A stretch of 59,091 nucleotides of DNA from Candidatus Eiseniibacteriota bacterium (GCA_035601515.1 DATNOD010000001.1:1-59091); one strand, 5' to 3'; positions 3,377 to 26,311 are shown, counted from the stretch's first letter. Notes: generated from the letters alone by a model not told the origin. Made by a program: numbers and translations.

Positions 3377-3511
3377 GCATCGGCCGCCGTCCAGATCCCT
3401 TCCGGCAGCAACCTCGTCCATCAGCCAAGCAACGCCGGATCACTAGGGGGGCCTACCACTCTCCAGACATCACGGGTCCTCGATCGAGATGGCAAATGCA
3501 GGTAGTGGCGG

Positions 3512-5677: not shown

Positions 5678-5900
5678 TGTCCGTTACAGGAGCTTCGCCT
5701 TGTATTTTTGTTCAGCCACGCTTCTCAAGCAGCGTCAGGGCGTCTCAGGGTTAAGCTGTCAAACAAGCTGTCAACCGCCTCGAGAAAGGATGTACGAGGC
5801 GGCGAAGTAATCGCGACCGGGATCGGTTCGTTTGACCTTCCGAAACGCACCAGGCGCCGGTCGTGAATTTGCAAAGTCCCTGCGGTACTGTCATGGCGGC

Positions 5901-9238: not shown

Positions 9239-9285
9239 TGGTGCTCGCGCAGGGAGTCGAACCCTGAACCTTGGGATTAAGAGTC
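9239..9285 (-). repeat. Partial copy of tRNA-Lys 3' half (att-like direct repeat)
   Basis: 47/47 nt identical to 14456-14502 (checked base by base), same orientation. Confidence 0.9.
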
Positions 9286-9294
9286 TCTCGACAT

Positions 9295-9386
9295 ACCGTC
9301 TCAGGGAGTTTCAGCGAGGATCAGCGCGTCTCACTCGAGCTCGAATTTATGACGCAACCGTCTCAGGGAGTCTCAGCGAGGATCAG
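9295..9386 (+). repeat. 30-nt direct repeat pair inside the left arm of the island
   Basis: ACCGTCTCAGGGAGTTTCAGCGAGGATCAG (9295-9324) and ACCGTCTCAGGGAGTCTCAGCGAGGATCAG (9357-9386), 29/30 identical. Confidence 0.85.
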
Positions 9387-9472
9387 GGAGTCTCCCGGTC
9401 AAGGTGTCTAATAGGGTGCGAAGACGTCGTGGCTGCTCCCAATGGCGGCGGGACTCCACACCATCGGCTCGA

Positions 9473-10279
9473 TCAGCCCCGATCGATGATCATCGACGCG
9501 AGGATGGCCTTTAGCTCCGCGAGGTCCGCCTGAGAGGTGGCTGGCATGTGCGAAGCGTCGATCACTAGCGGCCGGCGATCGACATCGACCATGTACACAG
9601 AGTCGAGCTGGCCGCCGGCGTTATGGGAGTTCGCACCATTGCTATGCCACTCGGTCCAGCTTCGGAACTCCCCCTTGTCACAGGTGGAGATGTCCAGCGC
9701 GGCCGGCACTGAGAGATCGATCCGCAGGGCAAGCACGCTCCCCCTTTGTCCGGCCCACAAATCCGTCAGCTTCACTGGGGTCAGCGCACGCGGGAGGGGA
9801 CCCCGAAAGGCCTGGTTGGCCAGCCCCCCGTCATAGGGCGCCAGCACAATCGCACCATTTGCAGCATGGGAATGGTTGGCGAGATCGAGCGGGCTCAGCG
9901 CGCTTCCCTGCCAGTCACAGGGGTCGGCGTACACCTGATCCACGGTCCAGGCGCTGAACGCAACCTCGCCAGGCTGATTCAGGTGCTTGTACACGAGCCC
10001 TTTGCTGCTGGCCCATCCAGGTGGCAGCGTGAAATAGATCCCCGCGTAAGCGGAACATCCTCCTGCGCAGGAAGGATCTGGATTGGCCAGGAAATAGGTC
10101 CCGGGAGCGAGGGCGCCCGACTTCGGGAGGGGAACCGGAATACCCGTAACGACCGGATTCGCCAGAACGACCTGCCTCGAGTGGAGTGACCGCGCGGTGA
10201 GCAGAAGCGTGGCCACAATCGCGACAGCGAGCAGCGCCGCCACCAGGGCGGCCATCTTGACCCTGGTAAGCGTGCTCAT
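9473..10279 (-). CDS. Hypothetical secreted/membrane-anchored protein
   Basis: N-terminal signal-anchor (MAALVAALLAVAIVATLLL), several Cys, no recognised domain. AGGAG RBS. 5' region duplicated upstream of the cupin gene. Confidence 0.6.
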   Translation of the reverse strand: MSTLTRVKMAALVAALLAVAIVATLLLTARSLHSRQVVLANPVVTGIPVPLPKSGALAPGTYFLANPDPSCAGGCSAYAGIYFTLPPGWASSKGLVYKHLNQPGEVAFSAWTVDQVYADPCDWQGSALSPLDLANHSHAANGAIVLAPYDGGLANQAFRGPLPRALTPVKLTDLWAGQRGSVLALRIDLSVPAALDISTCDKGEFRSWTEWHSNGANSHNAGGQLDSVYMVDVDRRPLVIDASHMPATSQADLAELKAILASMIIDRG

Positions 10280-10447
10280 TCGCGACTCCTCATGCGGTTG
10301 TTGACGGTGGCAACGACGAAATCGCCTTCATAGCGATATACGGTCCGTTGCCTCAATTTGCCCCACCTGATTTCGGCCAAGAGATTTGGGGCACATCTGC
10401 CCGCAACGCCCTCTAGGTCGAGTGCGGTGGGCTAAGTGACGTCGTTT
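10277..10447. repeat. Copy A of a ~170-bp duplicated divergent promoter/5' region
   Basis: Aligns by eye at roughly 80% identity with 11005-11176. In this copy the sigma-factor start is reduced to GTG GGC TAA. Confidence 0.8.
10336..10362 (-). promoter_or_regulatory. Candidate ECF-type promoter block (copy A)
   Basis: Minus-strand GGCAAAttgagGCAACggaCCGTATAT, conserved with copy B, about 60 nt upstream of ATG 10279. Confidence 0.3.
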
Positions 10448-10524
10448 GGGCTTCCGACTGGTTGTCGGTCATCGAGTTAGCGAGCGGCGTCCCCATCGAA
10501 GAGCGCGCCGCCGCTCAACAGCCG

Positions 10525-11007
10525 TCAGATGTCCGGGCAAGTACTCGGGTCTGGCACGTCGATCCTCGCGGAGCCACCCTGAGGTACACGCGGGAAAGTG
10601 ACGATGAGTACGTATGGGGTCGTGCCGGTATTGACCACGTCATCCACTTCGCCAGGTCGCTCGATAAACGCCTGCCCTGCGGTGTAGTTGGTGGTCTCGC
10701 ACTGGCTGCCGACCGATCGGTGCACGGTGAGTTCGCCCTGCTCCACGACCACGATTGCACCCCCTGGATGCGCGTGCCAGCCAGAGGAGCCGCCGGGGAT
10801 GACCGTGATCTGCGTCACGACTACGTCCGTTCCCTCTTTGAACGCGATGGTCCCAACCGACAGGTCGGTGCCACGCGCCAAGGTGACGTTTGTCAGACCC
10901 GACGGTGGCGTGGCCGCCCCAGGCACAGCGTTGACTGCGACGAGCAGCCCCGCCAATCCCAACGTCATCAATGCCAGCCGAAAAACCCGTCTCGTAAGTG
11001 TGTCCAT
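10525..11007 (-). CDS. Secreted cupin domain protein
   Basis: Signal peptide (LALMTLGLAGLLVAVNA) plus GGSSGWHAHPGG...VVEQGELTV cupin motifs. AAGGAG RBS. Confidence 0.7.
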   Translation of the reverse strand: MDTLTRRVFRLALMTLGLAGLLVAVNAVPGAATPPSGLTNVTLARGTDLSVGTIAFKEGTDVVVTQITVIPGGSSGWHAHPGGAIVVVEQGELTVHRSVGSQCETTNYTAGQAFIERPGEVDDVVNTGTTPYVLIVTFPRVPQGGSARIDVPDPSTCPDI

Positions 11008-11176
11008 TCGCGACTCCTTATATGGCTGTTGCCGGTGTCAACGAAGAGATCGCCTTCACAGTCATATACGGTCAGTTGCCACTGTTTGCCGCAAATGATT
11101 TCCGGCCAAGAAATTTGGGGCACATCGGCCCGCGACGCCCTATATAGGTCGAGTGCGATGGTCCAAGTGATGTTCG
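11005..11176. repeat. Copy B of the duplicated divergent promoter/5' region
   Basis: See copy A. This copy keeps TATATA (11141-11146) and the ATG 11158 start of the ECF sigma gene. Confidence 0.8.
11064..11090 (-). promoter_or_regulatory. Candidate ECF-type promoter block (copy B)
   Basis: Minus-strand GGCAAAcagtgGCAACtgaCCGTATAT, about 60 nt upstream of ATG 11007. Confidence 0.3.
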
Positions 11177-11697
11177 TCCAGACCGACACCGAATTGATCC
11201 TGGCTGCCAGGGAGGGCGACGGTTCAGCCTTTGCCGAGCTCATTCGTCCCCAGTACAGGGTGGCGTTCCGCGTGGCCTTTGGACTACTCCACAACGCCGA
11301 CGAAGCGGAGGACGCCGTTCAGGAAGCAGCTTTCAAAGCGTGGAGAAGGCTTGGCAACCTTCGCGAGGGCGCCAGCCTACGGCCATGGTTCCTAGCCATC
11401 GTGGCCAATCAATGCCGGACCGTGAGCAGAAGCAGGTGGTGGTCTGTGGTCAAGGCCGAATCGTTTGAGGGTGAGGGACAGTCGGTTGACGTCGCAGCTG
11501 CAGTCGACCTTCGCCGAGCCCTCCTCAGGTTAGGCCACGACGAACGACTGATTGTGGTCCTTCGCTACTACCTCGACATGCCATTTGAGGAGATCGCGAC
11601 AACGCTTGGTATCTCCACCAAGGCGGCCAGGACTCGCGTCGAACGAGCAGTCCGTCGCCTCCGTCCAATCATTCAGATCCAGGGGGCGGCATTCTGA
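11158..11697 (+). CDS. ECF (sigma-70 family) RNA polymerase sigma factor
   Basis: Region 2 (DAVQEAAFKAWRRLGNLREGASLRPWFLAIVANQCR) and region 4 (RLIVVLRYYLDMPFEEIATTLGISTKAARTRVERAVRRL). ATG 11158 (alternative ATG 11170). The upstream 232 codons of track ORF 10462-11697 are rejected. Confidence 0.8.
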   Translation: MVQVMFVQTDTELILAAREGDGSAFAELIRPQYRVAFRVAFGLLHNADEAEDAVQEAAFKAWRRLGNLREGASLRPWFLAIVANQCRTVSRSRWWSVVKAESFEGEGQSVDVAAAVDLRRALLRLGHDERLIVVLRYYLDMPFEEIATTLGISTKAARTRVERAVRRLRPIIQIQGAAF

Positions 11698-12698
11698 TGG
11701 AAGAACGGACTCTGTTTGATCGAATCCACGAAGCACTCGATGTCGAACCGCGACCGGGTGCTTACGAGCGACTGCGGACCGCTCTCGCCAGCAAGCGAGT
11801 CAAGCCGCAGAGATGGCCGGCGTTTCCGATGAGGTCGCCAAAGTTGGGACTCCGACTGGCGGCCGTTATGACTGTCGTGGTGCTGGCGATTGCGGCAGCC
11901 GCCGCCTTCCTGGTCACACACCCTGTGGCAGACCGTGAGACTCCTGCCGACTCGGAGCGCGCGATCGCCGCGTACAAACTGATGCTGTACGACGACTACA
12001 TCAAGATCCCAGATCCAGCCATCGAGTCGGTGTGCTTCGGCAACCAGTTTGCAGCCTGCGATGCCGACGTGAGCGTCCGCATACCTGTCGTGAACCAAAT
12101 CCAAAATGATCTCAATCGGCTCGAACCACCCGCCAGGTTCGCCGTTGCAGTCGGTCAAATGCGTCGCCACAATGCACTACAACTCACGCGCCTCAATGCT
12201 GTGCTTGCTGCCAGCCGGGCGCAGGACGCTGCGGGCATGGATCGCTCGGTTGCGGCCGTCGTCAGCGGGCGTCCATGGATGGACGCGATGTTTACCGGCG
12301 TCCTGAGTTCGCAACAGGGGACCGTGGCAACGTACCTCGGCTCTGTGCGCAACGAAAAACGAAATCTTGATCTATGCGTGGAGTGCCAAGACCTGGCCGG
12401 GCAGAACCAGATCACTTGCACTGGGAGTCAGGCAACCAGCTGCCAGGCCTTGCTCCAAGGCACCGCAGCGCAGGTTGGGAGCTTCCAGAGAGCTGTAGTC
12501 CTGGTCGCTGCCCCGAGCTCCATGGCCACCAGGGACAACCGTCTGCAGGTTGATTTGGCAACGGCCGACACGGCTCTAGTCACGATGGCCGAGGCACTGT
12601 CAGCAGGTGATCAAGCCGGATTCAATGCCGGTCGAGCATCGCTTCAGCAGGCCATGGCTGCGGTCAACGTGGACGCCGCGGACATCTTGAACGGTTAG
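11697..12698 (+). CDS. Putative single-pass anti-sigma factor
   Basis: ATG overlaps the sigma stop (TGATG). Short cytoplasmic N-terminus, one TM (LRLAAVMTVVVLAIAAAAAFLV), Cys-containing extracytoplasmic domain. Assignment by position only. Confidence 0.5.
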   Translation: MEERTLFDRIHEALDVEPRPGAYERLRTALASKRVKPQRWPAFPMRSPKLGLRLAAVMTVVVLAIAAAAAFLVTHPVADRETPADSERAIAAYKLMLYDDYIKIPDPAIESVCFGNQFAACDADVSVRIPVVNQIQNDLNRLEPPARFAVAVGQMRRHNALQLTRLNAVLAASRAQDAAGMDRSVAAVVSGRPWMDAMFTGVLSSQQGTVATYLGSVRNEKRNLDLCVECQDLAGQNQITCTGSQATSCQALLQGTAAQVGSFQRAVVLVAAPSSMATRDNRLQVDLATADTALVTMAEALSAGDQAGFNAGRASLQQAMAAVNVDAADILNG

Positions 12699-12711
12699 GG
12701 CGGCTGGTTGG

Positions 12712-13869
12712 ATGGGGAGGGAATTTCTGTCTGTGGTTGTCGTCGTCGGGCTGTTGGCGGGCGCCTGCGGCTCCTCGTCGTCGCCGGTCGCCCAGACCTA
12801 CAGCCTTGGCCACTTTCCGAATGTGCCAACGGGTTCTTTCTCCCAATCCACGAGGGGTGCACTGCAGGCCGTCCTTGACGCTGCAATCGATCCTGGAGGG
12901 CTGCCTGGCATCACGGCGACCGTATTGGCTGCCGATGGCGAAGCATGGTCCGGGGCGGCCGGTACCGCCGACGGAGTGCATCCGGTCGAGGTGCGTTCAC
13001 AGTTTTCCATCGCTAGCCTCACCAAGACGGTGATCGCAGCCGAAGTCATGCGCCTTTCCGAAAAAGGGTTGCTGCGTTTAATCGACCCAGTTTCGGAACA
13101 TCTCCCGTCGAACGTCCACTTCGACACCAATGGGGCCACCGTCGAAAACCTGCTCCATATGGAGAGCGGCATCCCCGACCCGACATGGTTTGGTCCCAGT
13201 GGCGCGAAGGCAGATCCGCTACGCGCGTGGACACCCCAGGAGGTCCTGGCCACCGTTCCTGCCTACCGTTCGAAACCAGGCGACCACTTTGTCTACGAGG
13301 ACGCCAACTACATGCTGCTTGGTTTGGTAATCGAGGCAACGACCGGAACGAGCGTGGCCGGTGCACTGCGCTCAGACGTCCTTGCCGATCCACGCCTCGG
13401 CTCGATGGTTTATCAGCCTGCGGAGCGTCCGAAGGGTCCGCTCGCGCTTCCGTTCCTCGGAGGGCAGGTTCGGCCTAACATCCTCGAAGTTGGCGGGGGC
13501 TATCTACCTACCAAGGCGGAAGCCAGTTACGCGAATGGGTCCGGGTGCATGGCAAGCGATTCGGGGGCGCTAGCTCTCTGGGGATATCTGCTGTTCGGCG
13601 GCCAGCTCCTCTCTGAAAAGTCTCTGCTGGCAATGACCGACTTCGGGAACGGTTTCTACGGGCTTGGCGTGTTCAACCAGACCAAGGACGGCGCATGGCG
13701 CGGAGCGGGCCAAGCGATCGGCAACGGAGGATGGGAAGACGGCGGTTACTCGTCGGTTCTGGCTGTCCTACCGAGCGAAGGGATCGTCATCTCCGTCATG
13801 ACCAACCATGCCGGCGACCCCAAGGCCTTGGTGTTCCCCACCGCTGAGGCGCTAGCTTCGTCTCTGTGA
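12712..13869 (+). CDS. Lipoprotein serine hydrolase (beta-lactamase/class C-like, PBP4*-type family)
   Basis: Lipobox LLAGAC. SxxK motif SIASLTKT. YEDANY (Y-x-N). Confidence 0.7.
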   Translation: MGREFLSVVVVVGLLAGACGSSSSPVAQTYSLGHFPNVPTGSFSQSTRGALQAVLDAAIDPGGLPGITATVLAADGEAWSGAAGTADGVHPVEVRSQFSIASLTKTVIAAEVMRLSEKGLLRLIDPVSEHLPSNVHFDTNGATVENLLHMESGIPDPTWFGPSGAKADPLRAWTPQEVLATVPAYRSKPGDHFVYEDANYMLLGLVIEATTGTSVAGALRSDVLADPRLGSMVYQPAERPKGPLALPFLGGQVRPNILEVGGGYLPTKAEASYANGSGCMASDSGALALWGYLLFGGQLLSEKSLLAMTDFGNGFYGLGVFNQTKDGAWRGAGQAIGNGGWEDGGYSSVLAVLPSEGIVISVMTNHAGDPKALVFPTAEALASSL

Positions 13870-14455
13870 TGCGGAGCAAGGACCGCTAAGCAGCGGTACT
13901 GGCTAGAAGCCGGCGACTGGGACGCGTCCACCGTTGCGGTCGCGTACTTGATTTGGGGCGCCGTCTCAACCACATGAGGTGCTCGCGCATGCTTGGGACC
14001 GGCGCTGATCTCTCCAGACTGATAGTCGACGCCGAAGCCGGCATCTTGCTTCGTAGCCAAGCGGAGTTCGAGGGACACGTCTTAGGCACTATTCAGGTTG
14101 ACGACATTGCGTTAATGACGGATTCGGCGCAGGCGTGTTCGATCAAGCAGCGGCCAACCTCGAGGAGTGACAGCGTTCTCCCGCATGAGATCCCGCGAAA
14201 AGGCACCTGGTGTGCGGCGGACAAAGTAGCGACACGGTCCGCATGAGGCCGGGGGATTTCACGTCCCCCGATGGGCGATTTTTGTCGATCACCTGAGATC
14301 AAATTGGACCCGTGCGGCTGCGATTGGGGCTCGCATTCTCAACCGCCAAGGTGTCAAACAAGGTGTCAGACGTCGGTTGAGCCTGGACCTCTTGCCAGCA
14401 CTTGAGACTCCCTGCACCACAGAGAGACTCTCTGAGACTCTGTGACACTACATGC

Positions 14456-14531
<76 letters not shown>

Positions 14532-14612
14532 GTGACCAAAAGCCGAGAAACGATTCTAAGGTTCCAAGGGACTTAACACGCTGGGTTCCTAATTGCATCT
14601 GATCCACCTAGC

Positions 14613-14936
14613 GTGCCCTTCATGCCGGCCCGCGTTCCGTTGGATGTCGACCTCGAGGACAAGCTCATCTACGGCTTGACGCCGATGCGTCTCGCATACC
14701 TTGTGGTGTCTCTGCTCGCGGGGTTTGCGCTCTGGTCATCGCCATGGTCTCCACAACCGATCCGGGCCGCGGCGTCTATGGGTGTCATTGCGCTGGGAGT
14801 TGTGATGGCTTGGGGTCGGTGGCGCGCGCGAGCAACCGACCGCTGGCTGTCGGACATCGCGATTTTCACCGCGAGACGCTACCGATTCGAGTGGACTCTT
14901 TCGAAACGACGGCGAGAACCGAAATCAAGCAGTTGA
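14613..14936 (+). CDS. PrgI-like (VirB3-analog) small membrane protein of Gram-positive-type T4SS
   Basis: VPLDVDLEDKLIYGLTPMRLAYLVVSLLAGFALW matches the PrgI family hallmark (DxEDK..GLT.RQ followed by TM helices). Two TM segments. GTG 14613 or ATG 14622. Confidence 0.6.
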   Translation: MPFMPARVPLDVDLEDKLIYGLTPMRLAYLVVSLLAGFALWSSPWSPQPIRAAASMGVIALGVVMAWGRWRARATDRWLSDIAIFTARRYRFEWTLSKRRREPKSSS

Positions 14937-17590
14937 ACGTTGGTCCAATTCGACTTGCCACGCGCGGCCCGTCGCTGCTGTGGCACGGAGCCAATGGCGT
15001 CGTGCAGATGGCCACTCACCCACTTGGTTTCGACGGTGCATCAGATGCGGATCAAATGCGGTGGCTCCACGGCTTTAGGCGACTGCTCGACGGCCTCGAC
15101 GCGCCGTTGCAGGTCGTGATCGAGACCGAGCCGGGATCAGGCGGGGACGACACAATCGCGCTGCCCACACCGCGCGACTTCGACGACATGAGGGGTGCTG
15201 ATCTGCGGTTCGTCGAGCTGATGTCGCGATCACCCTCGGCCCACCGCAGGCTGACTTCATTGGTCACACCGACATCAAATGCGCAACGTCTCGAAGGTGC
15301 GCTCCGCGAGATGGGTATCGGTTTTTCCAGCGCGACACCAGTACACGGCCCGACGTTCGGACTGGAGCGTCCTCACGAATTCTCATTCCACGCGGGGTGG
15401 AGCCGGTCCTGGTACCTCGAGCGCATGCCCGGGACCGAGCTCGAAGCCGGCTGGCTCTTTCGGTTGATCCCTTCCGGCTTGAAGACGCGCCTCTCGTGGC
15501 ATGCCGATCCGCTGCCGGTGGCGTGGATCGTCGATTACCTGCAACGCCAGCTCACCAACATGCGAGTCTCGCGAATGCAGGAGCTCAGCGCGGGGACAAA
15601 CGATCCGATGCTTGCCGGAGCTCTGCCCAACACGGAAGATCTGCAGCGACGCCTGGCCTCAAGCCAGGAGAAGGCGTTTCACGTCTCCGTCTACATCACC
15701 TTGGTCGCGGCCACGAAGCAGGCCCTTGAGGAGGGTTCGGAAGAAATTCGCTCCGCGGCTCGCGCCGCACTTTGTGAGCTCCAGCCGTCCACGTTCCGGA
15801 TGCTCGACGGCCACCTCGCGACCCTTCCTGCGTGCGCCGACCGTCTGGCCCGCAAACGTGTCCTCGACACCAGCGCGCTGGCAACGCTCTTCCCTTGGTG
15901 TGGTGCGGAGATTCAGCAACCAGGTGGTCTCGTCGTCGGCAGCGGCTACGCGAGCGGTGGACCCGTCCTTGTCGACCCTTTCGACCAGACACGGTATGCC
16001 AACGCCAACATCGGCGTGTTCGGCTATTCCGGCGCGGGAAAGACCTACCTGCTTTCGACGCTCCTGATGGGATCACTTGGCCGCGGCATTCAGGTGTATG
16101 TGATCGATCCCGAGCACGAATATGGCAACCTCGCGCGCCACCTCGGCGGCATCGATGTGCAGCTGGCACTGGGCTCGGGCCACTCTCTCAACGTGCTCGA
16201 ACTTCGACCGTCGGAGCGCCGAGACGAGTCGTGGCTGGGCGCTGCGACAGCGGATGCGGTCGACCTCTGCGCGACCATATGCGGCGGACTCGATGAGGCC
16301 GAGCGGGCGGTGGTCGAGGCCGCTGCTCGCGCTGCCTACCACGCTGCAGAGCAGCCGGTGCTGAGCGACGTCGCGATGTTACTTCCGAACGATTCTCGGG
16401 CCTTCGCGATCCTCCAACGCTGGGTAAACGGAAGCCTCGGTCAGATGTTCAGCGCACCGACAAATATCGATCTCGAAGCTCCCATCGTCGTGTTCGGCAT
16501 GCGGGAGCTGCGCGACGAGCTGATCCCGCCGGTCCACTTCCTACTGGCGGAAGCCCTGTGGACCCGAATCAAGCGCAAGGACCGTCGCCGAATGCTCGTC
16601 GTCGACGAGCTGGGCCTTCTGTTTGAGGACCCGACCATCCGGCGCTTCGTGGTGAACCTCGCGCGGAGGATTCGCAAATACGACGGGTCACTGGTGTTCG
16701 CAACTCAGAATCCAGGCGACCTGTTGAGCACCGATGCAGGAGCCGTCGTCGCGACCAACCCAGCTCTGCTCTTTCTTGGCGCTCAGCGGCCGGGCGAGGC
16801 TGCCAAGCTCGAGTCGGCCTTTCATCTCAGCCCCAGGCAGCGCGCGTTCTTGGAGGCGGCCAAGCGTGGCGATTTTTTGCTGTCAGCTGGCCCAGACCGG
16901 CTCACCGTCCGCGTCCAGGCGCCCGGCTGGCAGGAGGAGGCGATGCGGCTGGCGCGGCACACGGCGCGACCGCCGCCCATTACAGGTAGGCTAAATCGCG
17001 TGCGTAGAGTCCTCCACTACCGGCTGTACGGACTTCCCGAGCAGCGTCTCGAGCGGGTGCACGCCCAGTTCGAGGCTCTTGCCGAAGCACGTACATGGCG
17101 CTGCGAGCCGCCGTGGGTGGCCAGCTCGTACTCGCGCGGACTCTTCGAGATGGAGTACTTCCGCCACCTCAAAAACGAGGACGTCGTAAACACCACCGCT
17201 GCGGGTTTCGTGAAGATGGCGGGCGACGAGACCGACGCCCTGATCGTCGCCATCTTCATGCGCGACCTGAGCGCGGAATACGGCATCAAGACGACATTGA
17301 AGGACGAGGATCATCCGCTCGCCAAGCTGCGCCGGCTCGAGTTCGACCACGGCCGGCTTCCGAATGGTCAGTCGCTGGAGGAAGTCCTGGCCAAGCGCCC
17401 GGTGATCAAGAAGGTTCAAGGCGAGCGCATCCTTTTCTACCCGCCGACCTTTCGCCTTCACTCCCAGAGTCCCCCGAGCCCGGAGTGGGCCTACGCCCTG
17501 TTTGGGATCCGGGCCTATGCCCCGACTTTGCTGGAGGCCGAACAAGAAGCGCTCAAGATCCTGAGAGGCTTCGGTCACCTTGCCGGCTGA
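14933..17590 (+). CDS. VirB4/TrsE/PrgJ-like conjugation ATPase with an uncharacterised ~200-aa C-terminal extension
   Basis: TTG 14933 overlaps the PrgI stop (TTGA). Walker A GYSGAGKT, VIDPEHEYGNLARHLGG, Walker B RRMLVVDELG, FATQNPGD. No stop codon between the ATPase core (ends about 16980) and the extra domain. The 5' part of track ORF 14744-17590 overlaps PrgI and is rejected. Confidence 0.7.
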   Translation: MNVGPIRLATRGPSLLWHGANGVVQMATHPLGFDGASDADQMRWLHGFRRLLDGLDAPLQVVIETEPGSGGDDTIALPTPRDFDDMRGADLRFVELMSRSPSAHRRLTSLVTPTSNAQRLEGALREMGIGFSSATPVHGPTFGLERPHEFSFHAGWSRSWYLERMPGTELEAGWLFRLIPSGLKTRLSWHADPLPVAWIVDYLQRQLTNMRVSRMQELSAGTNDPMLAGALPNTEDLQRRLASSQEKAFHVSVYITLVAATKQALEEGSEEIRSAARAALCELQPSTFRMLDGHLATLPACADRLARKRVLDTSALATLFPWCGAEIQQPGGLVVGSGYASGGPVLVDPFDQTRYANANIGVFGYSGAGKTYLLSTLLMGSLGRGIQVYVIDPEHEYGNLARHLGGIDVQLALGSGHSLNVLELRPSERRDESWLGAATADAVDLCATICGGLDEAERAVVEAAARAAYHAAEQPVLSDVAMLLPNDSRAFAILQRWVNGSLGQMFSAPTNIDLEAPIVVFGMRELRDELIPPVHFLLAEALWTRIKRKDRRRMLVVDELGLLFEDPTIRRFVVNLARRIRKYDGSLVFATQNPGDLLSTDAGAVVATNPALLFLGAQRPGEAAKLESAFHLSPRQRAFLEAAKRGDFLLSAGPDRLTVRVQAPGWQEEAMRLARHTARPPPITGRLNRVRRVLHYRLYGLPEQRLERVHAQFEALAEARTWRCEPPWVASSYSRGLFEMEYFRHLKNEDVVNTTAAGFVKMAGDETDALIVAIFMRDLSAEYGIKTTLKDEDHPLAKLRRLEFDHGRLPNGQSLEEVLAKRPVIKKVQGERILFYPPTFRLHSQSPPSPEWAYALFGIRAYAPTLLEAEQEALKILRGFGHLAG

Positions 17591-18419
17591 AGGCGCCCTC
17601 GCCCGCGAAGGCACGATCGACTCGGCTGACGGTACCAAGCTCTCGTACCGTGCCTGGCCGAAAGCGGGTGCAGGAATCACGTTCGCGGTCGTGCACGGAC
17701 TTGGCGAGCACGCGCGGCGATACGAGCGCTTCGCCCTCGGGATGTCGCGGCACGGTTTCGCGACATTCGCGGTCGATCTGCGCGGTCATGGCAAGAGTCC
17801 CGGCCCACGAGGACATGTCGACAAATGGAGCCAATGGACTGAGGACGCGGCAGCATTTGTGGGGTACGTGGAGGGAATTGCCGGTGGAGAGGTGGTGCCG
17901 CTTGGGCATTCATTCGGCGGCGCCACTCTGCTGAGCACGGTTCTCGCTGACAAGCTGCCCGGAACCAGAAGGTTCATCTTGTCCAGCCCGGCGCTAAGGG
18001 TGAAGGCAGCCGTGCCTGGCTGGAAAATTGCGCTTGCCAGGGCGACTTCGACGATCGTTCCGAAACTGGCTCTCGAGAATGAGGTCGACCCGAAGGTGCT
18101 CTCCCGGATTCCTGAGGTGGTCGAGGCCTATCGCACCGATCCGCTTGTGCACAGCAAGATCTCCAGCCGCCTCTATTCGGAATGGAGGGCCGCCTGCAAG
18201 CGCATCTTCGAGCGCGCCGGCAAGATCAGCATCCCGTTCTTGATCCTGGCCGGGACCGACGATGGGTTGATCGACCCCGATGGCAGCAAGGAACTGCACC
18301 GCCTGTCGGACTCGGTGAGCCAACTCACGCTATTGGAGGGCCGCTACCATGAGCCCTTCAACGACCTGGACAACGAGGAGGTCTTCGCTGTGATTGCTGA
18401 TTGGTTGTCGAAGTCGTGA
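17580..18419 (+). CDS. Alpha/beta hydrolase (lysophospholipase/monoacylglycerol lipase-like)
   Basis: HGLGEHARRYERFA...VDLRGHGKS...GHSFGG nucleophile elbow. TTG start overlaps the previous gene by 11 nt. Confidence 0.7.
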   Translation: MPAEGALAREGTIDSADGTKLSYRAWPKAGAGITFAVVHGLGEHARRYERFALGMSRHGFATFAVDLRGHGKSPGPRGHVDKWSQWTEDAAAFVGYVEGIAGGEVVPLGHSFGGATLLSTVLADKLPGTRRFILSSPALRVKAAVPGWKIALARATSTIVPKLALENEVDPKVLSRIPEVVEAYRTDPLVHSKISSRLYSEWRAACKRIFERAGKISIPFLILAGTDDGLIDPDGSKELHRLSDSVSQLTLLEGRYHEPFNDLDNEEVFAVIADWLSKS

Positions 18420-18685
18420 ACCTCGAGCCCGGATCATGGGTCGCCTGGATCGTCGTCGGGCTGATATCGGGTGCGGTTGCGGCTCGTGTGGTGACGGGCC
18501 GTGGGTTTGGCTGCATCGCGGACATCGTCGTCGGCGTCGCAGGCGCGATCATCGGCGGTTTTCTGCTGAACGCCCTTTTTCATATGACGGGAACAGTCGG
18601 CTTCTTGGGAAGCATCGTGGTCGCATTCATCGGCGCCGCGGTATTACTGGCCGGGCTGAAGCTGCTATCCGGCGGGCGGCTCTGA
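18416..18685 (+). CDS. GlsB/YeaQ/YmgE family stress-response membrane protein
   Basis: GTG 18416 overlapping the hydrolase stop (GTGA). WIVVGLISGAVAARVV...DIVVGVAGAIIGGFL pattern. Confidence 0.7.
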   Translation: MNLEPGSWVAWIVVGLISGAVAARVVTGRGFGCIADIVVGVAGAIIGGFLLNALFHMTGTVGFLGSIVVAFIGAAVLLAGLKLLSGGRL

Positions 18686-22047: not shown

Positions 22048-22635
22048 ATGCATGCGCAGGCGGCGGCCCAGGCCCTCCCCATGACCGGGACTCCCGACGC
22101 CCGAGCACTAGCTGCGGGCCAGCTTGCTCACCAGGCGACCGGCGGCGACCTGGATGCATTCGAAGAGTTGGTCCGCCGCATGCAGCGCCGCGTCTACGGG
22201 TTCGCATATCAGCATCTACGAGACCTCGACGAGGCCCACGACCTCACCCAGGAGATCTTCGTCAAGCTCTATCGCAACCTCGCCCGCTACGACGCCGACC
22301 GGCCATTCGAGCCCTGGTTCTGGAAGCTCGCCGCCAACAGCACGATCAACTACCGGCGGAAGCGCGTGCCCATGCCAACCGACCAATCCGCGGACCAAGC
22401 CACAACCGGATCTGAGTCAGGCTTCCCCGCCCACGATCCCGCGCTCATCGACGCGCTGGCCCAGCTCGACCCCGCCTACCGCCTGCCCATCCTTCTTCAC
22501 TATTACGCCGACCTTCCCCTCGACCAGGTCGCCCAGAGCCTGAGTCTCAGCGTGCCGGCCATCAAGTCGCGGCTTCACCGCGCCCGCGCTCTGCTCCGCA
22601 ACTCGCTGGCGGAGTCCGAGGAAGCCGGCCAGTAA
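22048..22635 (+). CDS. ECF (sigma-70 family) sigma factor
   Basis: Region 2 DLTQEIFVKLYRNLARYDADRPFEPWFWKLAANSTINYRRK. Region 4 LLHYYADLPLDQVAQSLSLSVPAIKSRLHRAR. Start ATG 22048 or 22081. Confidence 0.8.
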   Translation: MHAQAAAQALPMTGTPDARALAAGQLAHQATGGDLDAFEELVRRMQRRVYGFAYQHLRDLDEAHDLTQEIFVKLYRNLARYDADRPFEPWFWKLAANSTINYRRKRVPMPTDQSADQATTGSESGFPAHDPALIDALAQLDPAYRLPILLHYYADLPLDQVAQSLSLSVPAIKSRLHRARALLRNSLAESEEAGQ

Positions 22636-23174
22636 TGAATGCCCTCGCGTGCGCGCGCGTGCGCGTACTTCTGGAGCCGTACGTCGATGGCGACCTCGCT
22701 CACAACGATCCTGAGACGGCACGAGCCGTCGGCGACCACCTGGTCACTTGTGCGGACTGCCGCCGCCAGCATCAACAAGCGGTATCCCTGCCTTTCCGGA
22801 TGAAAGCGCTTCGGTCGCCAGCACCCCGCGCAACCCTGGTCGCCGGCGTGATGGGCTCGATCGCACCGCAACCGCAAGCCGCACGCGCCGCGTGGGGCCT
22901 GCTCGTCCCCGAGGCGCTGCTCGGCGCGTTCATCCTCTGGTACGTCTCCGGCCTCGACGGCCTTACCGCTCTAGCATCGGGGGCCTGGAGCAACCTGCAG
23001 GGCCTCGCGTTCTGGGGTTCGGGCACGGCGCCGCTCCCGAGCGTCCCCGTGGCCGACGTCCTGCTGCTCGGAGCCTTCATCACGCTGACAGCAATCGCGG
23101 CGTATCACCTGTCTCTGCTCGCAAAGCTCGACCAGAGCGCGACACCACGCTTCACTGAGCATCGCGGCGCGTGA
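22635..23174 (+). CDS. Zinc-binding (ZAS, zf-HC2) anti-sigma factor, membrane anchored
   Basis: H-x3-C-x2-C motif (DHLVTCADC). TAATG overlap with the sigma gene. C-terminal TM helices. Confidence 0.7.
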   Translation: MNALACARVRVLLEPYVDGDLAHNDPETARAVGDHLVTCADCRRQHQQAVSLPFRMKALRSPAPRATLVAGVMGSIAPQPQAARAAWGLLVPEALLGAFILWYVSGLDGLTALASGAWSNLQGLAFWGSGTAPLPSVPVADVLLLGAFITLTAIAAYHLSLLAKLDQSATPRFTEHRGA

Positions 23175-23992
23175 GCGAACGGAACGAAGGTGAAGGCGCG
23201 TCGCCCGGCGACGCGCAGCAGCCGCCTGCACGACCAGCCGGACCGCCCATGTTGCGACGTTGGGGTTGGCCGATCCTGGTCGCGGTACTTGCCGCGCTCG
23301 GCGTGCTTCTGGCGATAGCCGACACCGCGCTCTACGGCCCGACGCTTGGGCCTTACGCGACTTTCTTGATCGGCCCCTCCCAAGGGGTCAACTTCGTCCC
23401 GCGGCAGAGTCCGGATTCCGGGCGATTCATCAAGAACAGGTTTCCCGAGAAGGTCAGCTTCGGATCGCCGTTCGGCCGGCTCGGCACGATGAGCCCTTTG
23501 CAAGCGCTTCGCGCCTTTCTCAGCAATGGAGCCGGCCTCGTGCTCCTCGCCTTGGCCGTGCTGCTTCTGTTTCCCAACCGGGCGCGAGTCGCGGTCCAGC
23601 GGCTGGAAGGCCGGCATGGAATCGAGATCGCGCTCGCCGCGGGCATCGCCGCGTTTTTGCTCGCCATCGGGGCCGTCGCCTTGCTGAGGTTCACCTTGAT
23701 CTTCCTGGCGGTCATCCCGTTTGTGATCCTGATCGCGGTTGCGGTCGCGCTTTTCGGGATCGCGTGCATAGCGCTGGCGCTTGGCCGCCTGTTGCAGCGG
23801 CGCCTCCATCTGGGACCGGCGCACCCGCTCGTCGCGGCGGTCGCCGGCGCCCTGCTCGTTTTCGACCTCGCAGTCATCCCCTACCTCGGCGCGGTGGCGC
23901 TGGCGGCGGTTGCGATCGCTGGCCTGGGACTCGCCGCGGTCACTCGCTTCGGATCCGAAACCGGATGGTCCTTCGGAGACCCCGACTGGTGA
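23171..23992 (+). CDS. Polytopic membrane protein of unknown function (positional analog of YknW)
   Basis: GTG overlapping the previous stop (GTGA). 5-6 predicted TM helices. No recognised motif. Confidence 0.5.
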   Translation: MSERNEGEGASPGDAQQPPARPAGPPMLRRWGWPILVAVLAALGVLLAIADTALYGPTLGPYATFLIGPSQGVNFVPRQSPDSGRFIKNRFPEKVSFGSPFGRLGTMSPLQALRAFLSNGAGLVLLALAVLLLFPNRARVAVQRLEGRHGIEIALAAGIAAFLLAIGAVALLRFTLIFLAVIPFVILIAVAVALFGIACIALALGRLLQRRLHLGPAHPLVAAVAGALLVFDLAVIPYLGAVALAAVAIAGLGLAAVTRFGSETGWSFGDPDW

Positions 23993-24020
23993 TGTCAAAA
24001 GCAATGGAGGTGAGAGTCGG

Positions 24021-25637
24021 TTGTTGAAGAACACAAGGCTGGTGGTGGCAGCGCTCGCTGTGATCGCGCTGGTGCTCGGAGGCCTCATTTATCGCGACGT
24101 TTTCGTCGGCACCAAAAACGCGGGCAGCACTCTCAATCTCTATACGGTCGGCCGGCGAACGGTAACTTCCAGCGTCACCGGCACCGGCAACCTGGTGCCG
24201 ATGCAACAGGCCAACGTGAGCTTCAAAGTCAGCGGCTCGCTGACCGAGATCGACGTCAGAGTTGGCGATCACGTCGCCGCCGGGCAGGTGCTCGCCAAGA
24301 TCGATCCGACCAATTACCAAAACGCGCTCGCGAGCTCACAGGCCAACCTCGCCCTGGCCCAGGCCAACCTGCAATCGGCGGAAACGCCGCTGACGCAAGC
24401 TCAGATCACCCAGCTTCGCAACAACCTGGCCAACGCGCAGCAGCAATACAACGACACCGTCGCGCAGGTGAACCTGACCAACACGCAGGATGCGAACCAG
24501 GTCACCTCGGACCAGAACCAGCTGACCGCTGACCAGCAGGCACTAACCTTCAACTCCGCATATCAGGCGGCCAAACAGACCCTGACCAGCGACCAGGCGA
24601 CGCTCCAGACAGCCATCAACCAGTTCCAGGCCGACGGCTGCAACACTCAGACCTACCCATATTCAGGCCTGTGCGTGGCGGACTTCTCAGCGGTGTCCAG
24701 CGACCAAACCAAGGTCAACTCGGACCAGTTGGCCGTCAACGGGTTCGCGACCCAGGTCAACGCCGACCAGGCCAAGCTCAACCTCGACACCGTCAAGCAG
24801 CAAACCGACAAGACGAGCGGCCAGCGCAGCATCAACGCGGCCGCTGCCTCGGTCACAAGCGCTCAGGACACCCTCAACACGCAGACGGAGGCCAAGCCGA
24901 ATCAGATCCTCTCCGCCCAGGCCTCGATGGCCAGCGCCCAGGTCGCGGTGCAAACGGCACAGCAGAACGTGACCAACACCACCCTCGTCGCTCCGATGGA
25001 CGGGGTGGTCAACAGCATCAACGGTGTCGTCGGAGAGACCGCGATCACCGGTTCCGGCACGACATCCGAGGCCCCGGGCTCGCAAGCCCCGCTGCCGACC
25101 AGCGGCGCGTCGAGCGCATTCATGGTCATCGGCAACATCAGCGGCCTGGAGGTCGTGATCCCCTTCGCCGAGTCCGACGCCTCCAAGCTCGCAGTCAACC
25201 AGGACACGCAGGTCACCTTCGACGCCGTCCCCAGCCTCACCATCAGCGGGCACGTCGTCGCCGTGGCAAGCGCGGCGATCGTGCAGAGCGGGGTCGTCAA
25301 CTACTACGCCACCGTAGCTTTGAACCAGACCAACGCCGCGCTCAAGCAAGGCATGACCTCCAACGCCACCGTGACCGTGAGCAAGGCGACGAACGCAGTC
25401 GTCGTGCCCAACCTGGCGATCACAAGGCTCGCCGGCCAGGCCTATGTCAACGTCTATGTCGGCGGCAAAGAGGTCCAGACCGCGATCCAGACCGGCGTCG
25501 TCGGCGACCAGTTCACCGAGATCACGGGCGGCCTCAGTGAAGGGGCCGAGGTCGTGATTCCGACATTGAGAGTCTCCGGCAGCGGAGGCACGAATCGTTT
25601 CAATGGCGGCGGGGTCCGCATCGGCGGCGGCGGATGA
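24021..25637 (+). CDS. HlyD/MacA-type periplasmic adaptor (membrane fusion protein) with unusually long coiled-coil hairpin
   Basis: TTG 24021 after GGAGGTGA. N-terminal [28 protein letters not shown] lipoyl-like motif. About 220-aa Q/N/T/A-rich coiled coil. C-terminal beta-barrel/MP domains. Confidence 0.75.
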
Positions 25638-26311
25638 TCAGGCTGGAGGCCGTCACCAAGACCTACCGCATGGGCAGGGTCGAGGTCCAGGCGCTCCGCG
25701 GAATTGACCTGCATATCGAAAGCGGCGACTTCGTCGCGATCATGGGCGCCAGCGGCTCTGGCAAATCGACACTGATGAACATCGTCGGCTGCCTGGACGT
25801 GCCGACCAGCGGACGCTACTTCCTCGACGGGACCGACGTCGCCAGGCTCGACGACGACCAGCTTGCGATCATCCGCAACCGCAAGATCGGTTTTGTCTTC
25901 CAGAGCTTCAACCTCATCCCGCGTACGACCGCGCTGCACAACGTCGAGATGCCGCTGATCTACGCGGGGGCGCCTAACCGCCGTCCGCGTGCGCTCGAAG
26001 CACTGGACGCGGTCGGTCTTGCCAACCGCGCAGACCACCAGCCTACCGAGCTCTCGGGCGGCCAGCAGCAGCGTGCCGCGATCGCCCGCGCGCTCGTCAC
26101 CGACCCGGCGATCCTGCTCGCCGACGAGCCCACCGGCAACCTCGACAGCGGGTCGAGCGTCGAGATCATGAAGTTGCTGGTGGAGTTGAACGAACAGCAC
26201 GCCCGCACGATCGTCCTGATCACCCACGAACGCGATATCGCCGCGTTCGCGAAGCGAACGGTGGAGCTGCGCGACGGATTGATCGTCCGCGATGAGCGGC
26301 GCGCTGCATGA
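25634..26311 (+). CDS. ABC transporter ATP-binding protein (MacB/LolD-type)
   Basis: Walker [10 protein letters not shown], signature LSGGQQQR, Walker B LLADEPT. ATGA overlap with the adaptor gene. Confidence 0.9.

Follow-up and report, generated by a model that had tools for sequence, protein, structure and literature searches.

A chromosomal PrgI (VirB3)-VirB4 gene pair, probably vertically inherited and kept as a working unit in a large clade of Candidatus Dormibacterota

To our knowledge, VirB4 is the one protein that no type IV secretion or conjugation system lacks. It serves surveys as a marker of type IV secretion systems (T4SS), and an isolated virB4 gene is usually scored as a decaying element. 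The archaeal Ced system for DNA import consists of a VirB4/HerA-like ATPase, small membrane proteins and a polytopic channel, CedA, encoded beside the ATPase. We know of no cultured member of the Dormibacterota, a soil phylum. Among annotated gene clusters, the nearest found to the one described here lies on an Embleya sp. plasmid (NZ_CP108778), with the order PrgI family, XF1762, VirB4 ATPase, T4CP, relaxase and NlpC/P60. In Patescibacteria, a monoderm-type VirB4 with a PrgI-like VirB3 belongs to a lineage-conserved T4SS that is rarely exchanged, has no obligatory relaxase and serves a function other than the conjugation of mobile elements, with VirB6-, TrsD- and VirB2-like genes mostly beside virB4 (PMC12102498).

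Here, we describe two genes on the plus strand of a 59,091-nucleotide stretch of DNA (hereafter the window), in which a gene for a PrgI/VirB3-like small membrane protein (14622 to 14936) directly precedes one for a VirB4-type ATPase (14933 to 16978). The pair resembles the MPF-FATA PrgI-PrgJ core, as found in Embleya, in placing a small PrgI-family protein with two transmembrane (TM) segments directly upstream of a VirB4 ATPase; the two ATPases are 32% identical over 526 aa, and the N-terminal motif of the Embleya PrgI aligns with the small protein of the window. Unlike the Embleya cluster and MPF-FATA systems, however, the pair has in its vicinity no gene for a coupling protein, a relaxase, a channel-size membrane protein or a hydrolase of the cell wall, stays below the curated VirB4 and PrgI cut-offs, and is chromosomal, fixed and syntenic in the best 80 of 131 relatives rather than mobile. 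With Patescibacteria it shares a monoderm-type VirB4, a PrgI-like VirB3 and conservation within a lineage, but VirB6-, TrsD- or VirB2-like genes are not found beside the Dormibacterota pair. With Ced it shares a minimal, host-owned VirB4-like ATPase and small two-TM protein outside a mobile element, but no polytopic channel gene adjoins it, and the NCBIfam CedD model matches the ATPase marginally (18.8 bits) and over the Walker region only. VirB6, VirB8 and VirB10, under which the VirB4 of R388 sits, were likewise not found here.

The small protein is 104 aa long when read from its conserved start. The open reading frame called mechanically (14613 to 14936, plus strand) opens at GTG 14613, whereas comparison of homologues places the start at ATG 14622; the sequence-only reading had described a 107-aa two-TM protein, which was right as to its two hydrophobic segments (residues 15 to 37 and 47 to 65, Kyte-Doolittle) and slightly too long. 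An invariant motif, DVDLEDxLxYGL, runs through the family. PF12666 (PrgI) scores 21.6 to 21.8 bits against the protein (E 3e-4), below its cut-off of 27, and matches 32 of 32 tested homologues at E < 0.01 (best 4.7e-7); hhalign pairs the protein with the annotated PrgI-family protein of the Embleya plasmid at E 1.7e-4 and a probability of 49%. The layout is that of a PrgI/VirB3-like gene, which encodes about 100 aa with two TM segments and sits, coupled, immediately ahead of virB4. The coupling, already noted from the sequence alone, can be read directly in the TTGA overlap, where TTG at 14933 starts VirB4 and TGA at 14934 to 14936 stops PrgI, and most related loci show an overlap or a gap of 0 to 23 nt. 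Values of dN/dS for PrgI (0.09 to 0.34) lie inside the span seen for the hydrolase and MFS genes that flank the pair. In one clade, the PrgI-like protein carries an extra C-terminal extension of about 130 aa, with a marginal ParA/MinD (CbiA) hint (E 0.19).

The ATPase, 682 aa from its TTG start to a conserved ...ARPPP end and free of TM segments, forms the VirB4 part of a large plus-strand frame (14744/14933 to 17590, 885 aa) that also takes in the next gene. Its P-loop NTPase domain is of the VirB4/TraG type and carries Walker A (GYSGAGKT) and Walker B (MLVVDELG); these, together with VIDPEHEY and ATQNPGD, the other motifs first noted from the sequence alone, are all present in the translation. 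The VirB4 assignment was borne out by profiles of the domain and not by those of the whole protein: PF19044 (P-loop_TraG, 39.2 bits, cut-off 25.8) and DUF87 (PF01935, 27.5 bits, cut-off 23.2) exceed their cut-offs, but the best NCBIfam model, NF045971 for CD1110-family VirB4-like ATPases (244.5 bits, cut-off 325), and TIGR00929 VirB4_CagE (114 bits, cut-off 643) fall below theirs, TraC and TrbE score far under, PF03135 gave no match in the Pfam scan, and none of the curated whole-protein VirB4 cut-offs is reached. A sequence search of the PDB returned the VirB4 of T. pseudethanolicus (4AG5, E 3.7e-29). The top 17 Foldseek matches of the AF2 model are all VirB4, headed by full-length R388 TrwK/VirB4 (E 1e-23 to 1e-16) and then the C-terminal domain of T. 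pseudethanolicus VirB4; the best, R388 TrwM/VirB3-TrwK/VirB4 (PDB 7O41, 8RTB, 8RTD), span both domains (E 1e-23, 720 to 746 columns), at 15 to 18% identity between TrwK and a window ATPase whose model is of low confidence. Because of that low confidence (pLDDT 61.5, TM ~0.4), the full-length fold match is no more than indicative. The model nonetheless predicts the two-domain VirB4 architecture, an N-terminal domain followed by a C-terminal ATPase, nearer to VirB4 than to HerA or T4CP.

HerA/VirB4-like ATPases also occur in anti-phage defence, and the pair might be read as a module related to MADS or Sir2-HerA. The ATPase matches PADLOC mad8 (65 bits over the P-loop domain) and, weakly, HerA and DndH, and Foldseek lists DndH-C and HerA defence complexes. 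The mad8 match, however, spans the shared ATPase fold only, VirB4 models and structures score far above HerA or DndH (DndH, HerA and TrwB stand behind VirB4 in Foldseek at E 1e-11 or weaker), and no further PADLOC match, such as to the companion genes mad1-7, Sir2 or a nuclease, arose in the four neighbouring proteins scanned. Defence islands are moreover patchy and variable, as opposed to the fixed, syntenic locus found here. We reject a MADS/HerA defence system and consider a defence role extremely improbable.

Peptide patterns of the window protein were scanned against species-representative genomes, which yielded 131 relatives, of which the best 80 were retrieved; since the patterns derive from the window protein, our claim concerns a large Dormibacterota clade rather than the whole phylum. 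In these 80, at 60 to 85% protein identity, the pair occupies the same chromosomal position. Their record titles mostly give Dormibacterota or "Chloroflexi CF_" MAGs, and we read the approximately 16 titles naming other taxa as probable mislabelling. The order tRNA-Lys, PrgI, VirB4, 196-aa gene, hydrolase, Transgly_assoc, MFS and PadR holds in nearly all 80, and synteny runs on for over 15 kb, taking in folate and further housekeeping genes. None of the 80 full-length VirB4 copies contains an internal stop, and Walker A, Walker B and ATQNPGD are strongly conserved. VirB4 dN/dS is 0.08 to 0.14 in 11 of 12 pairs and 0.23 in the closest pair, like that of flanking genes. VirB4 diverges in step with its surroundings, its pairwise identities correlating with those of flank genes (r = 0.64 to 0.70) as strongly as those of the flanks do with each other (VirB4 against MFS, r = 0.70; MFS against hydrolase, r = 0.63), the G+C content of the pair does not deviate, and neither patchy distribution nor pseudogenization nor relaxed selection was observed in the best 80 of the 131 relatives. 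Intact at the same spot in at least 80 species, the genes are best read as a retained working pair and not as the wreckage of a mobile element. The argument of the sequence-only reading that open frames and intact Walker motifs speak against decay, made there from a single copy, holds in 80 of 80, and its suggestion of a retained module gains the support of retention and selection. We conclude that this is probably a chromosomal, vertically inherited PrgI(VirB3)-VirB4 pair of Candidatus Dormibacterota that descends from a conjugation machine and has been kept as a working unit.

The pair abuts tRNA-Lys (anticodon CTT; 14456 to 14531, minus strand; ARAGORN, Rfam tRNA 67 bits), and the same tRNA lies upstream of it in 72 of 83 loci, the remainder being mostly cut contigs. 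As the tRNA is on the minus strand, it is transcribed away from the pair: its 5' end faces the PrgI-like gene, and its 3' end (14456) faces a variable island. A 47-nt stretch in the 3' part of the tRNA (14456 to 14502) recurs exactly, as a direct repeat, on the plus strand at 9239 to 9285 (matched in 0 of 100 shuffles); this copy is, on sequence grounds, the distal attachment site of an island of 5.2 kb integrated there (9286 to 14455). The island encodes a 268-aa protein, a cupin, an ECF sigma factor, a 333-aa protein and a beta-lactamase-fold protein, has GAGACTC-type repeats near both ends, and contains no integrase gene; none of the other loci has these genes upstream of the tRNA, and 17 of those loci show one or two extra partial tRNA copies there. 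Translated N-termini of frames in 10 islands at this site, judged by eye, included nothing conjugative-looking and resembled regulators, transporters, an antitoxin and an IS481-type transposase. The idea that such islands bring a relaxase, integrase or T4SS parts that use the resident VirB4 was dropped, none being recognized in the 10.

The proposed tRNA-Lys hot spot is therefore real, as the repeat attests, but the island sits on the 3' side and the pair on the 5' side, outside both repeats. This geometry bears on whether the pair is the last fragment of a decaying integrative and conjugative element (ICE) that entered at tRNA-Lys, as the sequence-only reading had offered as one of its two options. 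Given that the closest mobile relatives are conjugative (the Embleya plasmid, with its PrgI, VirB4, T4CP, relaxase and NlpC/P60) and that tRNA-Lys is a true integration site, an ancient ICE origin is plausible. Decay in progress is contradicted by the intact frames and motifs of all 80 copies, a fixed position in the best 80 of 131 relatives and a dN/dS of ~0.1; co-divergence with the flanks, normal composition, and the finding of an integrase or relaxase neither in the window nor at 86 loci also count against it, and we regard the degraded-ICE option as very unlikely.

Downstream, an alpha/beta hydrolase gene (Hydrolase_4; 17580 to 18419, plus strand) overlaps the large frame and is itself overlapped by a gene for a Transgly_assoc small membrane protein (18401 to 18685, plus strand), both assigned by Pfam and syntenic with the pair. 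Partners were sought with Pfam among the ~55 ORFs of the window and in precomputed Pfam annotations of the syntenic stretch at one related locus (L001). No coupling protein, relaxase, VirB6/VirB8-like protein, cell-wall hydrolase, adhesin or integrase was found among the window ORFs, in agreement with what had been said of the window at first sight. When every protein of the closest plasmid T4SS cluster (the channel-size hypothetical, T4CP, relaxase, NlpC/P60 and others) was searched by tblastn against 1.3 Mb covering 86 related loci with 10 kb on either side, only VirB4 matched, and at none of the 86 does virB4 stand with MPF genes and a relaxase as a CONJScan-type T4SS definition has it. Within 10 kb on either side in 86 loci, the pair stands alone in cis.

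A pair of this kind on its own would be without precedent, because all VirB4 proteins known so far act together with a VirB6-type channel and further components. It is conceivable, at somewhat worse than even chances, that the pair is one part of a chromosomal T4SS, complete but scattered, with VirB6-, VirB8- and VirB2-like and perhaps coupling proteins elsewhere in the genome, that would act in conjugation-like transfer, DNA uptake or secretion as in Patescibacteria. VirB4 action without a channel is not known (PMC4027160), a monoderm-type T4SS is passed on vertically in the Patescibacteria, relatives within the Terrabacteria (PMC12102498), and a pair under selection must have something to energize. 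Against such dispersal, virB4 has its partner genes clustered around it throughout the MPF classes, as it does in Patescibacteria (PMC12102498, PMC4027160), whereas no partner was found within 10 kb in 86 loci or in the 59-kb window. A truly stand-alone two-protein membrane motor, taken over from a conjugative element ahead of the clade's radiation and given a host function without a T4SS, is in our estimate rather unlikely; it might serve in DNA uptake or exchange, or in extracting or inserting membrane or envelope proteins.

The description of the locus as a two-gene module holds for PrgI and VirB4 but needs amending, since the large frame consists of VirB4 fused to an otherwise separate 196-aa gene, here called Cdom (17000 to 17590, plus strand, GTG start). 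The two are joined in the window because the VirB4 stop codon has been lost, leaving a linker (16979 to 16999, plus strand) that holds the -10-like hexamer TAGGCT. In a comparison of this junction across 25 loci, the stop is TGA, TAG or TAA by lineage, is missing in frame in the window, and is missing with out-of-frame read-through in ~11 loci; overall, Cdom is separate in 72 of 82 related loci and fused in 10. Stand-alone 196-aa homologues are 76 to 93% identical to it. Cdom has no Pfam match at E up to 10 and no PADLOC match; its AF2 model (pLDDT 59) has a ferredoxin-like beta-alpha-beta core, for which Foldseek returned nothing from the PDB below E 0.1. A profile search gave 59 matches among 1.84 billion representative proteins, and those inspected were Dormibacterota-type homologues, fragments, frame-shifted gene calls and two long repeat proteins that we take as spurious; by sequence, Cdom appears so far as known only in Dormibacterota.

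The fusion could be taken as a Rosetta-stone signal that VirB4 and Cdom form one functional unit, with Cdom as substrate, regulator or adaptor of the ATPase. The two adjoin in the same order in ~80 loci, the 10 in-frame fusions go back to no fewer than two independent events, one in the window clade and one at L062, and Cdom is the most conserved gene of the block (dN/dS 0.03 to 0.12). Yet in 76 of 77 loci Cdom retains a start codon and a -10-like element of its own, small indels flip the fused and unfused states within one clade while ~11 loci read through out of frame, and the pattern resembles neutral loss of stop codons in a genome rich in G+C. A 1.9-kb glycosidase gene separates VirB4 from Cdom at locus L082, and in another Dormibacterota lineage a Cdom homologue lies beside dtd and tRNA-Phe with no VirB4 nearby. 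We judge a single functional unit unlikely. That other lineage, with tRNA-Phe rather than tRNA-Lys, also led us to reject a simple insertion of the pair between the tRNA and Cdom.

Between tRNA-Lys and the PrgI-like gene lies a conserved, predicted divergent promoter region (14532 to 14621; right-aligned intergenic regions, 70 loci). It contains ATTCTA (14553 to 14558), the reverse complement of TAGAAT, likely the -10 element of tRNA-Lys, and a block conserved in the same 70-locus alignment, TTAACAnnCTGGGTTCC (14573 to 14589). A -10-like TAGCGT (14609 to 14614) ends 7 nt ahead of ATG 14622, and a TANNNT hexamer ends 6 to 7 nt ahead of the PrgI start in 71 of 74 loci and 8 nt ahead in one more, as against 0.7% at random positions. 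Ahead of Cdom, TAGGCT (16987 to 16992) is conserved and lies 7 nt before GTG 17000; of 77 loci, 76 have a TANNNT hexamer that ends 6 to 11 nt ahead of the Cdom start, and in 70 its sequence is TAGGCT. A search for canonical sigma-70 promoters and terminators gave no match above chance, and an Rfam scan found only the tRNA and no other RNA family. We infer promoter function for the -10-like elements from their placement.

Returning to the reading that we favor, a vertically inherited working pair, we propose that it derived from a monoderm-type conjugation machine (MPF-FATA-like, of actinobacterial or Firmicute style), was fixed in the ancestor of a large Dormibacterota clade and was retained thereafter. 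A leaderless mRNA beginning at ATG 14622 would encode the pair, with VirB4 translated by coupling at TTGA, and Cdom may also be made alone from the internal TAGGCT promoter. The two-TM PrgI-like protein would tether a VirB4 oligomer to the cytoplasmic membrane, where ATP hydrolysis at the conserved Walker sites would drive movement of a substrate. Our best guess, a speculative one drawn by analogy, is that the pair forms the energizing core of a non-conjugative, host-owned translocation apparatus whose channel components might be encoded elsewhere or lie beyond sequence recognition, in a role perhaps comparable to the DNA import and cell contact proposed for archaeal Ced and the chromosomal T4SS of Patescibacteria.

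A literature search linked Dormibacterota to VirB4 or conjugation nowhere beyond passing taxonomic mention, and the isolated VirB3/VirB4 pair is here a stable, selected, core-genome feature across the best 80 of 131 relatives. Studies of gene exchange in Dormibacterota gain a defined target in it, alongside further leads in the putative leaderless-type promoters, the 196-aa protein that appears restricted to the phylum and the busy tRNA-Lys integration site. If a dispersed or unrecognizable T4SS is the true explanation, the Patescibacteria finding would extend to a second Terrabacteria phylum; otherwise, the ATPase may, together with its membrane anchor, have taken on a new task, and a stand-alone motor, if true, would be the first instance of the universal T4SS ATPase working outside a T4SS. 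Either outcome would bear on how orphan virB4 genes are read in censuses of mobile elements.

A PrgI/VirB3-like small gene and an adjoining gene for a VirB4-type ATPase, situated beside tRNA-Lys(CTT), are fixed across a large clade of Dormibacterota. In the window the tRNA occupies 14456-14531 on the minus strand and the pair runs on the plus strand from 14613, confirming its proposed position on the 5' side of the tRNA. The small ORF spans 14613-14936, and its TGA (14934-14936) overlaps TTG 14933, which opens the frame of the long VirB4-like ORF ending at 17590 on the plus strand; the TTGA junction described from the sequence alone is thus real, and stop and start codons of the two genes overlap or are closely spaced in most loci. 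Comparison with relatives places the start of the small gene at ATG 14622 (M-P-A-R-V-P-L-D-V-D-L-E-D), giving a protein of 104 aa rather than the 107 aa originally read, with the expected two transmembrane segments represented by two hydrophobic stretches. Against the Pfam PrgI model (PF12666) it scored 21.8 bits, below the cut-off of 27, and 32 of the 32 PrgI-like homologues tested matched that model at E < 0.01; the N-terminus of an annotated PrgI-family protein can also be aligned with it. In one clade (loci L016, L022, L025, L030, L031, L039, L044, L057, L059, L071, and L082), the PrgI-like protein is enlarged to 220-280 aa by an additional cytoplasmic domain with the motif VVIVVTGRAPKAGATTVA..., bearing a faint resemblance to a degenerate ParA/MinD P-loop (CbiA, E 0.19).

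The four ATPase motifs cited in the sequence-only reading are all found in the translation of the window ORF. Pfam assigned the ATPase to P-loop_TraG (39.2 bits) and DUF87 (27.5 bits), both above their cut-offs, and the top NCBIfam model was the CD1110-family VirB4-like conjugal transfer ATPase (244 bits, below its cut-off of 325), followed by Mycoplasma-ICE VirB4, TraC, and VirB4_CagE. A sequence search of the PDB retrieved the VirB4 C-terminal domain of Thermoanaerobacter pseudethanolicus (E 3.7e-29) and also TrwK. The AlphaFold model, of modest quality (pLDDT 61.5), had the full-length TrwK/VirB4 of R388 as its top matches (E 1e-23, 720-746 aligned columns), with DndH, HerA, and TrwB far behind. 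The VirB4 protein is soluble, has conserved catalytic motifs, and is co-encoded with a two-TM PrgI-like protein. The identity of the gene was already known, as some homologues are publicly annotated as 'VirB4 family type IV secretion system protein' or 'DUF87'. A role in defence would draw on a match to mad8, but this is limited to the shared ATPase fold and no companion genes were found among the four neighbouring proteins scanned, making a defence system unlikely.

Candidatus Dormibacteraeota/Dormibacterales is the source of the named homologues. When one genome per GTDB species was scanned, 131 relatives emerged, the best 80 of which share 60-85% identity. Across these 80 species and two metagenome loci, the gene order in nearly all is tRNA-Lys(CTT, minus strand), PrgI-like, VirB4, Cdom (the 196-aa protein discussed below), Hydrolase_4, Transgly_assoc, in some cases a second hydrolase, MFS, and PadR, with synteny extending to GNAT, FolB, LarC, FolD, FolC, and PspC. 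Of 83 loci, 72 include the tRNA, and most of the remainder are truncated contigs. Between PadR and the GNAT gene, the window (22048-27555) and loci L001 and L002 carry a block of ECF sigma, anti-sigma, RND-adaptor, ABC, and FtsX genes that is absent from L087-L089, where GNAT-FolB directly follows PadR or MFS. In about 16 of the 80 records the title refers to unrelated taxa, archaea included; odd titles (L007, L018, L024, L027, L032, L038, L042, L049, L071, L079, and L082) include Nitrosopolaris, Nitrosotalea, Micrarchaeaceae archaeon, Eisenbacteria, Verrucomicrobiia, and Acidoferrum. As these contigs have the same gene order at 60-80% identity, mislabelling or mis-binning of the MAGs is the probable explanation. 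The complete locus is present twice in each of two bins, SMAG_U5031 and SMAG_U13908, suggesting that they mix strains.

None of the 80 full-length VirB4 genes contains an internal stop, and the Walker A, Walker B, and ATQNPGD blocks are strongly conserved among them. Nei-Gojobori estimates for 12 pairs gave dN/dS of 0.08-0.14 for VirB4 (0.23 in one very close pair), 0.09-0.34 for the PrgI-like gene, and 0.03-0.12 for Cdom, alongside 0.09-0.23 for Hydrolase_4 and 0.05-0.13 for MFS. For pairwise identities, VirB4 correlated at r = 0.70 with MFS, 0.66 with Cdom, and 0.64 with the hydrolase, at least as strongly as flank genes correlate with one another, and the G+C content is unremarkable. Intact frames, low dN/dS, co-divergence, and normal G+C together indicate a vertically inherited functional gene, upholding the earlier argument from open frames and intact Walker motifs against simple decay.

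The tRNA-Lys hot spot proposed from the sequence alone also stands, although the pair is not part of an element there, as the island lies on the other side of the tRNA. An exact second copy of the 3' 47 nt of the tRNA is found at 9239-9285 (matched by 0 of 100 shuffles). Since the tRNA is encoded on the minus strand, this copy identifies 9286-14455 as an island inserted at the tRNA 3' end. This 5.2-kb island encodes a cupin, an ECF sigma factor, a beta-lactamase-fold protein, and two unknowns, with no integrase among its genes. Just inside both ends (9295-9394 and 14404-14445) are repeats containing GAGACTC/GAGTCTC, comprising a 38-nt direct repeat (9295-9332 and 9357-9394) and a 35-nt inverted match (9360-9394 versus 14404-14438), which could be recombinase arm-type sites. 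Within the island, a duplication of ~180 nt (10263-10442 and 10991-11173; 77-89% identity, 729 nt apart) flanks the cupin gene and could be a doubled promoter or regulatory region. In seventeen other loci the tRNA is preceded, 1-9 kb upstream, by partial copies of itself (one or two per locus), forming tandem islands, and many contigs break just upstream of it; tRNA-Lys(CTT) is a recurrent integration site (loci listed: the window, L001, L002, L003, L014, L017, L026, L038, L040, L046, L047, L055, L061, L071, and L075). The window genes upstream of the tRNA occur in no other locus compared. Inspection by eye of translated N-termini from ten loci revealed no apparent conjugation genes among the island ORFs, which resemble regulators, transporters, an antitoxin, and an IS481-type transposase. 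Large AAA/TPR/LuxR-type regulators sit by or inside the islands in the window (5832-8765, also with an adenylate-cyclase domain), L040 (5917-8244), L046 (6218-8518), L055 (4494-6788), and L061 (2421-4733). The PrgI-VirB4 pair, which sits in a conserved block beyond the 5' end of the tRNA, cannot belong to the cargo of any element that uses this site. The suggestion that the pair is a remnant of an ICE in ongoing decay is contradicted by a pair that is syntenic in 80 retrieved species, intact, under selection, and outside the attachment repeats, and we regard it as scarcely credible.

The description as a two-gene module has to be modified, since the large ORF is not a single VirB4 gene. The 885-aa ORF has homologues of two sizes, one group at ~685 aa and the other at 885-930 aa; in L002, for example, VirB4 terminates at ...ARPPP*, with a distinct 196-aa gene downstream. 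This gene, Cdom (17000-17590 in the window), stands apart from VirB4 in 72 of 82 loci; the 10 in-frame fusions are those of the window, eight close relatives, and L062, where it arose independently. The VirB4 stop at the junction is TGA, TAG, or TAA depending on lineage, with no in-frame stop in the window, and within one clade 1-2 nt indels switch the fused and unfused states. In ~11 loci (L029, L045, L046, L052, L054, L064, L066, L067, L070, L074, and L077) the stop is lost and the VirB4 frame continues out of frame for 58-892 nt over the next gene; this would give VirB4 a junk tail, so that its C-terminus seems tolerant of extension. Cdom (also represented by proteins P0122-P0240 and loci L083-L086) occurs as a stand-alone protein in hundreds of contigs (76-93% identity) and is 76-97% identical across the clade. 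It has no match in Pfam or PADLOC and no significant fold match, has only 59 matches among 1.84 billion representative proteins, and is confined to Dormibacterota. The two most divergent loci, L082 (12060-13904) and L080 (about 2980-4880), have a 1.3-1.9 kb insert between VirB4 and Cdom, in L082 a melibiase-family glycosidase, with dtd following the hydrolase. In another Dormibacterota lineage a Cdom homologue (36-39% identity) lies between tRNA-Phe and dtd with no VirB4 nearby, indicating that Cdom is not intrinsically a VirB4 partner; there it is translationally coupled to dtd, the D-aminoacyl-tRNA deacylase gene.

The junction further contains the DNA motif GTAGGCT(A/T)A, kept irrespective of reading frame. 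In 76 of 77 loci the Cdom start has a TANNNT hexamer in front of it whose end lies 6-11 nt upstream (random-position rate 0.7%), and in 70 the hexamer is TAGGCT; in the window this -10-like element lies at 16987-16992 on the plus strand, before a GTG start at 17000. We read it from sequence conservation as a retained leaderless or short-leader promoter, so that Cdom is probably still made separately in the window. In L055 (12030-12100) the element is triplicated between VirB4 and Cdom as a short tandem repeat (TCTCAGGCTTAG x3). That VirB4 and Cdom constitute a true functional unit, as the fusions might imply, is improbable given the promoter-like element of Cdom, the back-and-forth flipping of the fusion state, and the Cdom homologues without VirB4. 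The PrgI-like start is likewise preceded by a TANNNT hexamer (window 14609-14621), which ends 6-7 nt before it in 71 of 74 loci and 8 nt before it in another; the mRNA is therefore probably leaderless. With no Shine-Dalgarno sequence before the PrgI-like and Cdom starts in L001-L082 and the window, this suggests leaderless or near-leaderless transcription in Dormibacterota. Signal and Rfam scans detected no canonical sigma-70 promoter, terminator, or Rfam element. The region between the tRNA and the PrgI-like gene (14552-14589) has two strongly conserved blocks, CGATTCTAAGG and TTAACAnnCTGGGTTCC, the former being the reverse complement of TAGAAT at a position fitting the -10 of the tRNA.

The claimed lack of other T4SS components in the window was corroborated by Pfam scans of ~45 further ORFs over 59 kb, together with precomputed Pfam assignments for a relative's syntenic stretch: no coupling protein, relaxase, VirB6/VirB8-like protein, peptidoglycan hydrolase, adhesin, or integrase was found among the scanned window ORFs, and the neighbours are ordinary folate/cofactor enzymes, transporters, regulators, acetyltransferases, and a helicase. 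The closest plasmid-borne relatives of VirB4 are actinobacterial (Streptomyces, Embleya; ~31% identity), followed by Firmicute conjugative plasmids (22-27%). The Embleya homologue sits in a canonical cluster (753-aa hypothetical, PrgI family protein, XF1762, VirB4, T4CP, replication-relaxation protein, and NlpC/P60), yet when all its proteins were searched against 1.3 Mb of Dormibacterota loci, VirB4 alone matched, in 86 loci. PrgI-type VirB3 homologues characterise the MPF-FATA class (PMC4027160). The most economical origin is that the VirB3-VirB4 core was captured once, before the clade diversified, from a monoderm-type conjugative system.

By analogy with TrwM and TrwK in R388, the PrgI-like protein would anchor a VirB4 oligomer at the membrane, and ATP hydrolysis would drive substrate movement. 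A channel would be needed; none is linked at these loci, and it may lie elsewhere in the genome. A full T4SS with dispersed genes, compatible with most findings on the pair, is the main alternative and a serious possibility, if short of an even prospect; a truly stand-alone motor with a non-T4SS function we consider rather unlikely. Our best guess, which is speculation, is a host-owned role in DNA uptake, DNA exchange, or envelope translocation, by analogy with the archaeal Ced system and with the chromosomal T4SS of Patescibacteria (PMC12102498).

Our literature search found no paper linking Dormibacterota to VirB4 or conjugation. An isolated virB4 is normally scored by surveys as a degraded element, as this one would be (PMC4027160); the novelty here lies in the setting, in which an isolated VirB3/VirB4 pair shows synteny, selection, and vertical inheritance over the 80 retrieved species.
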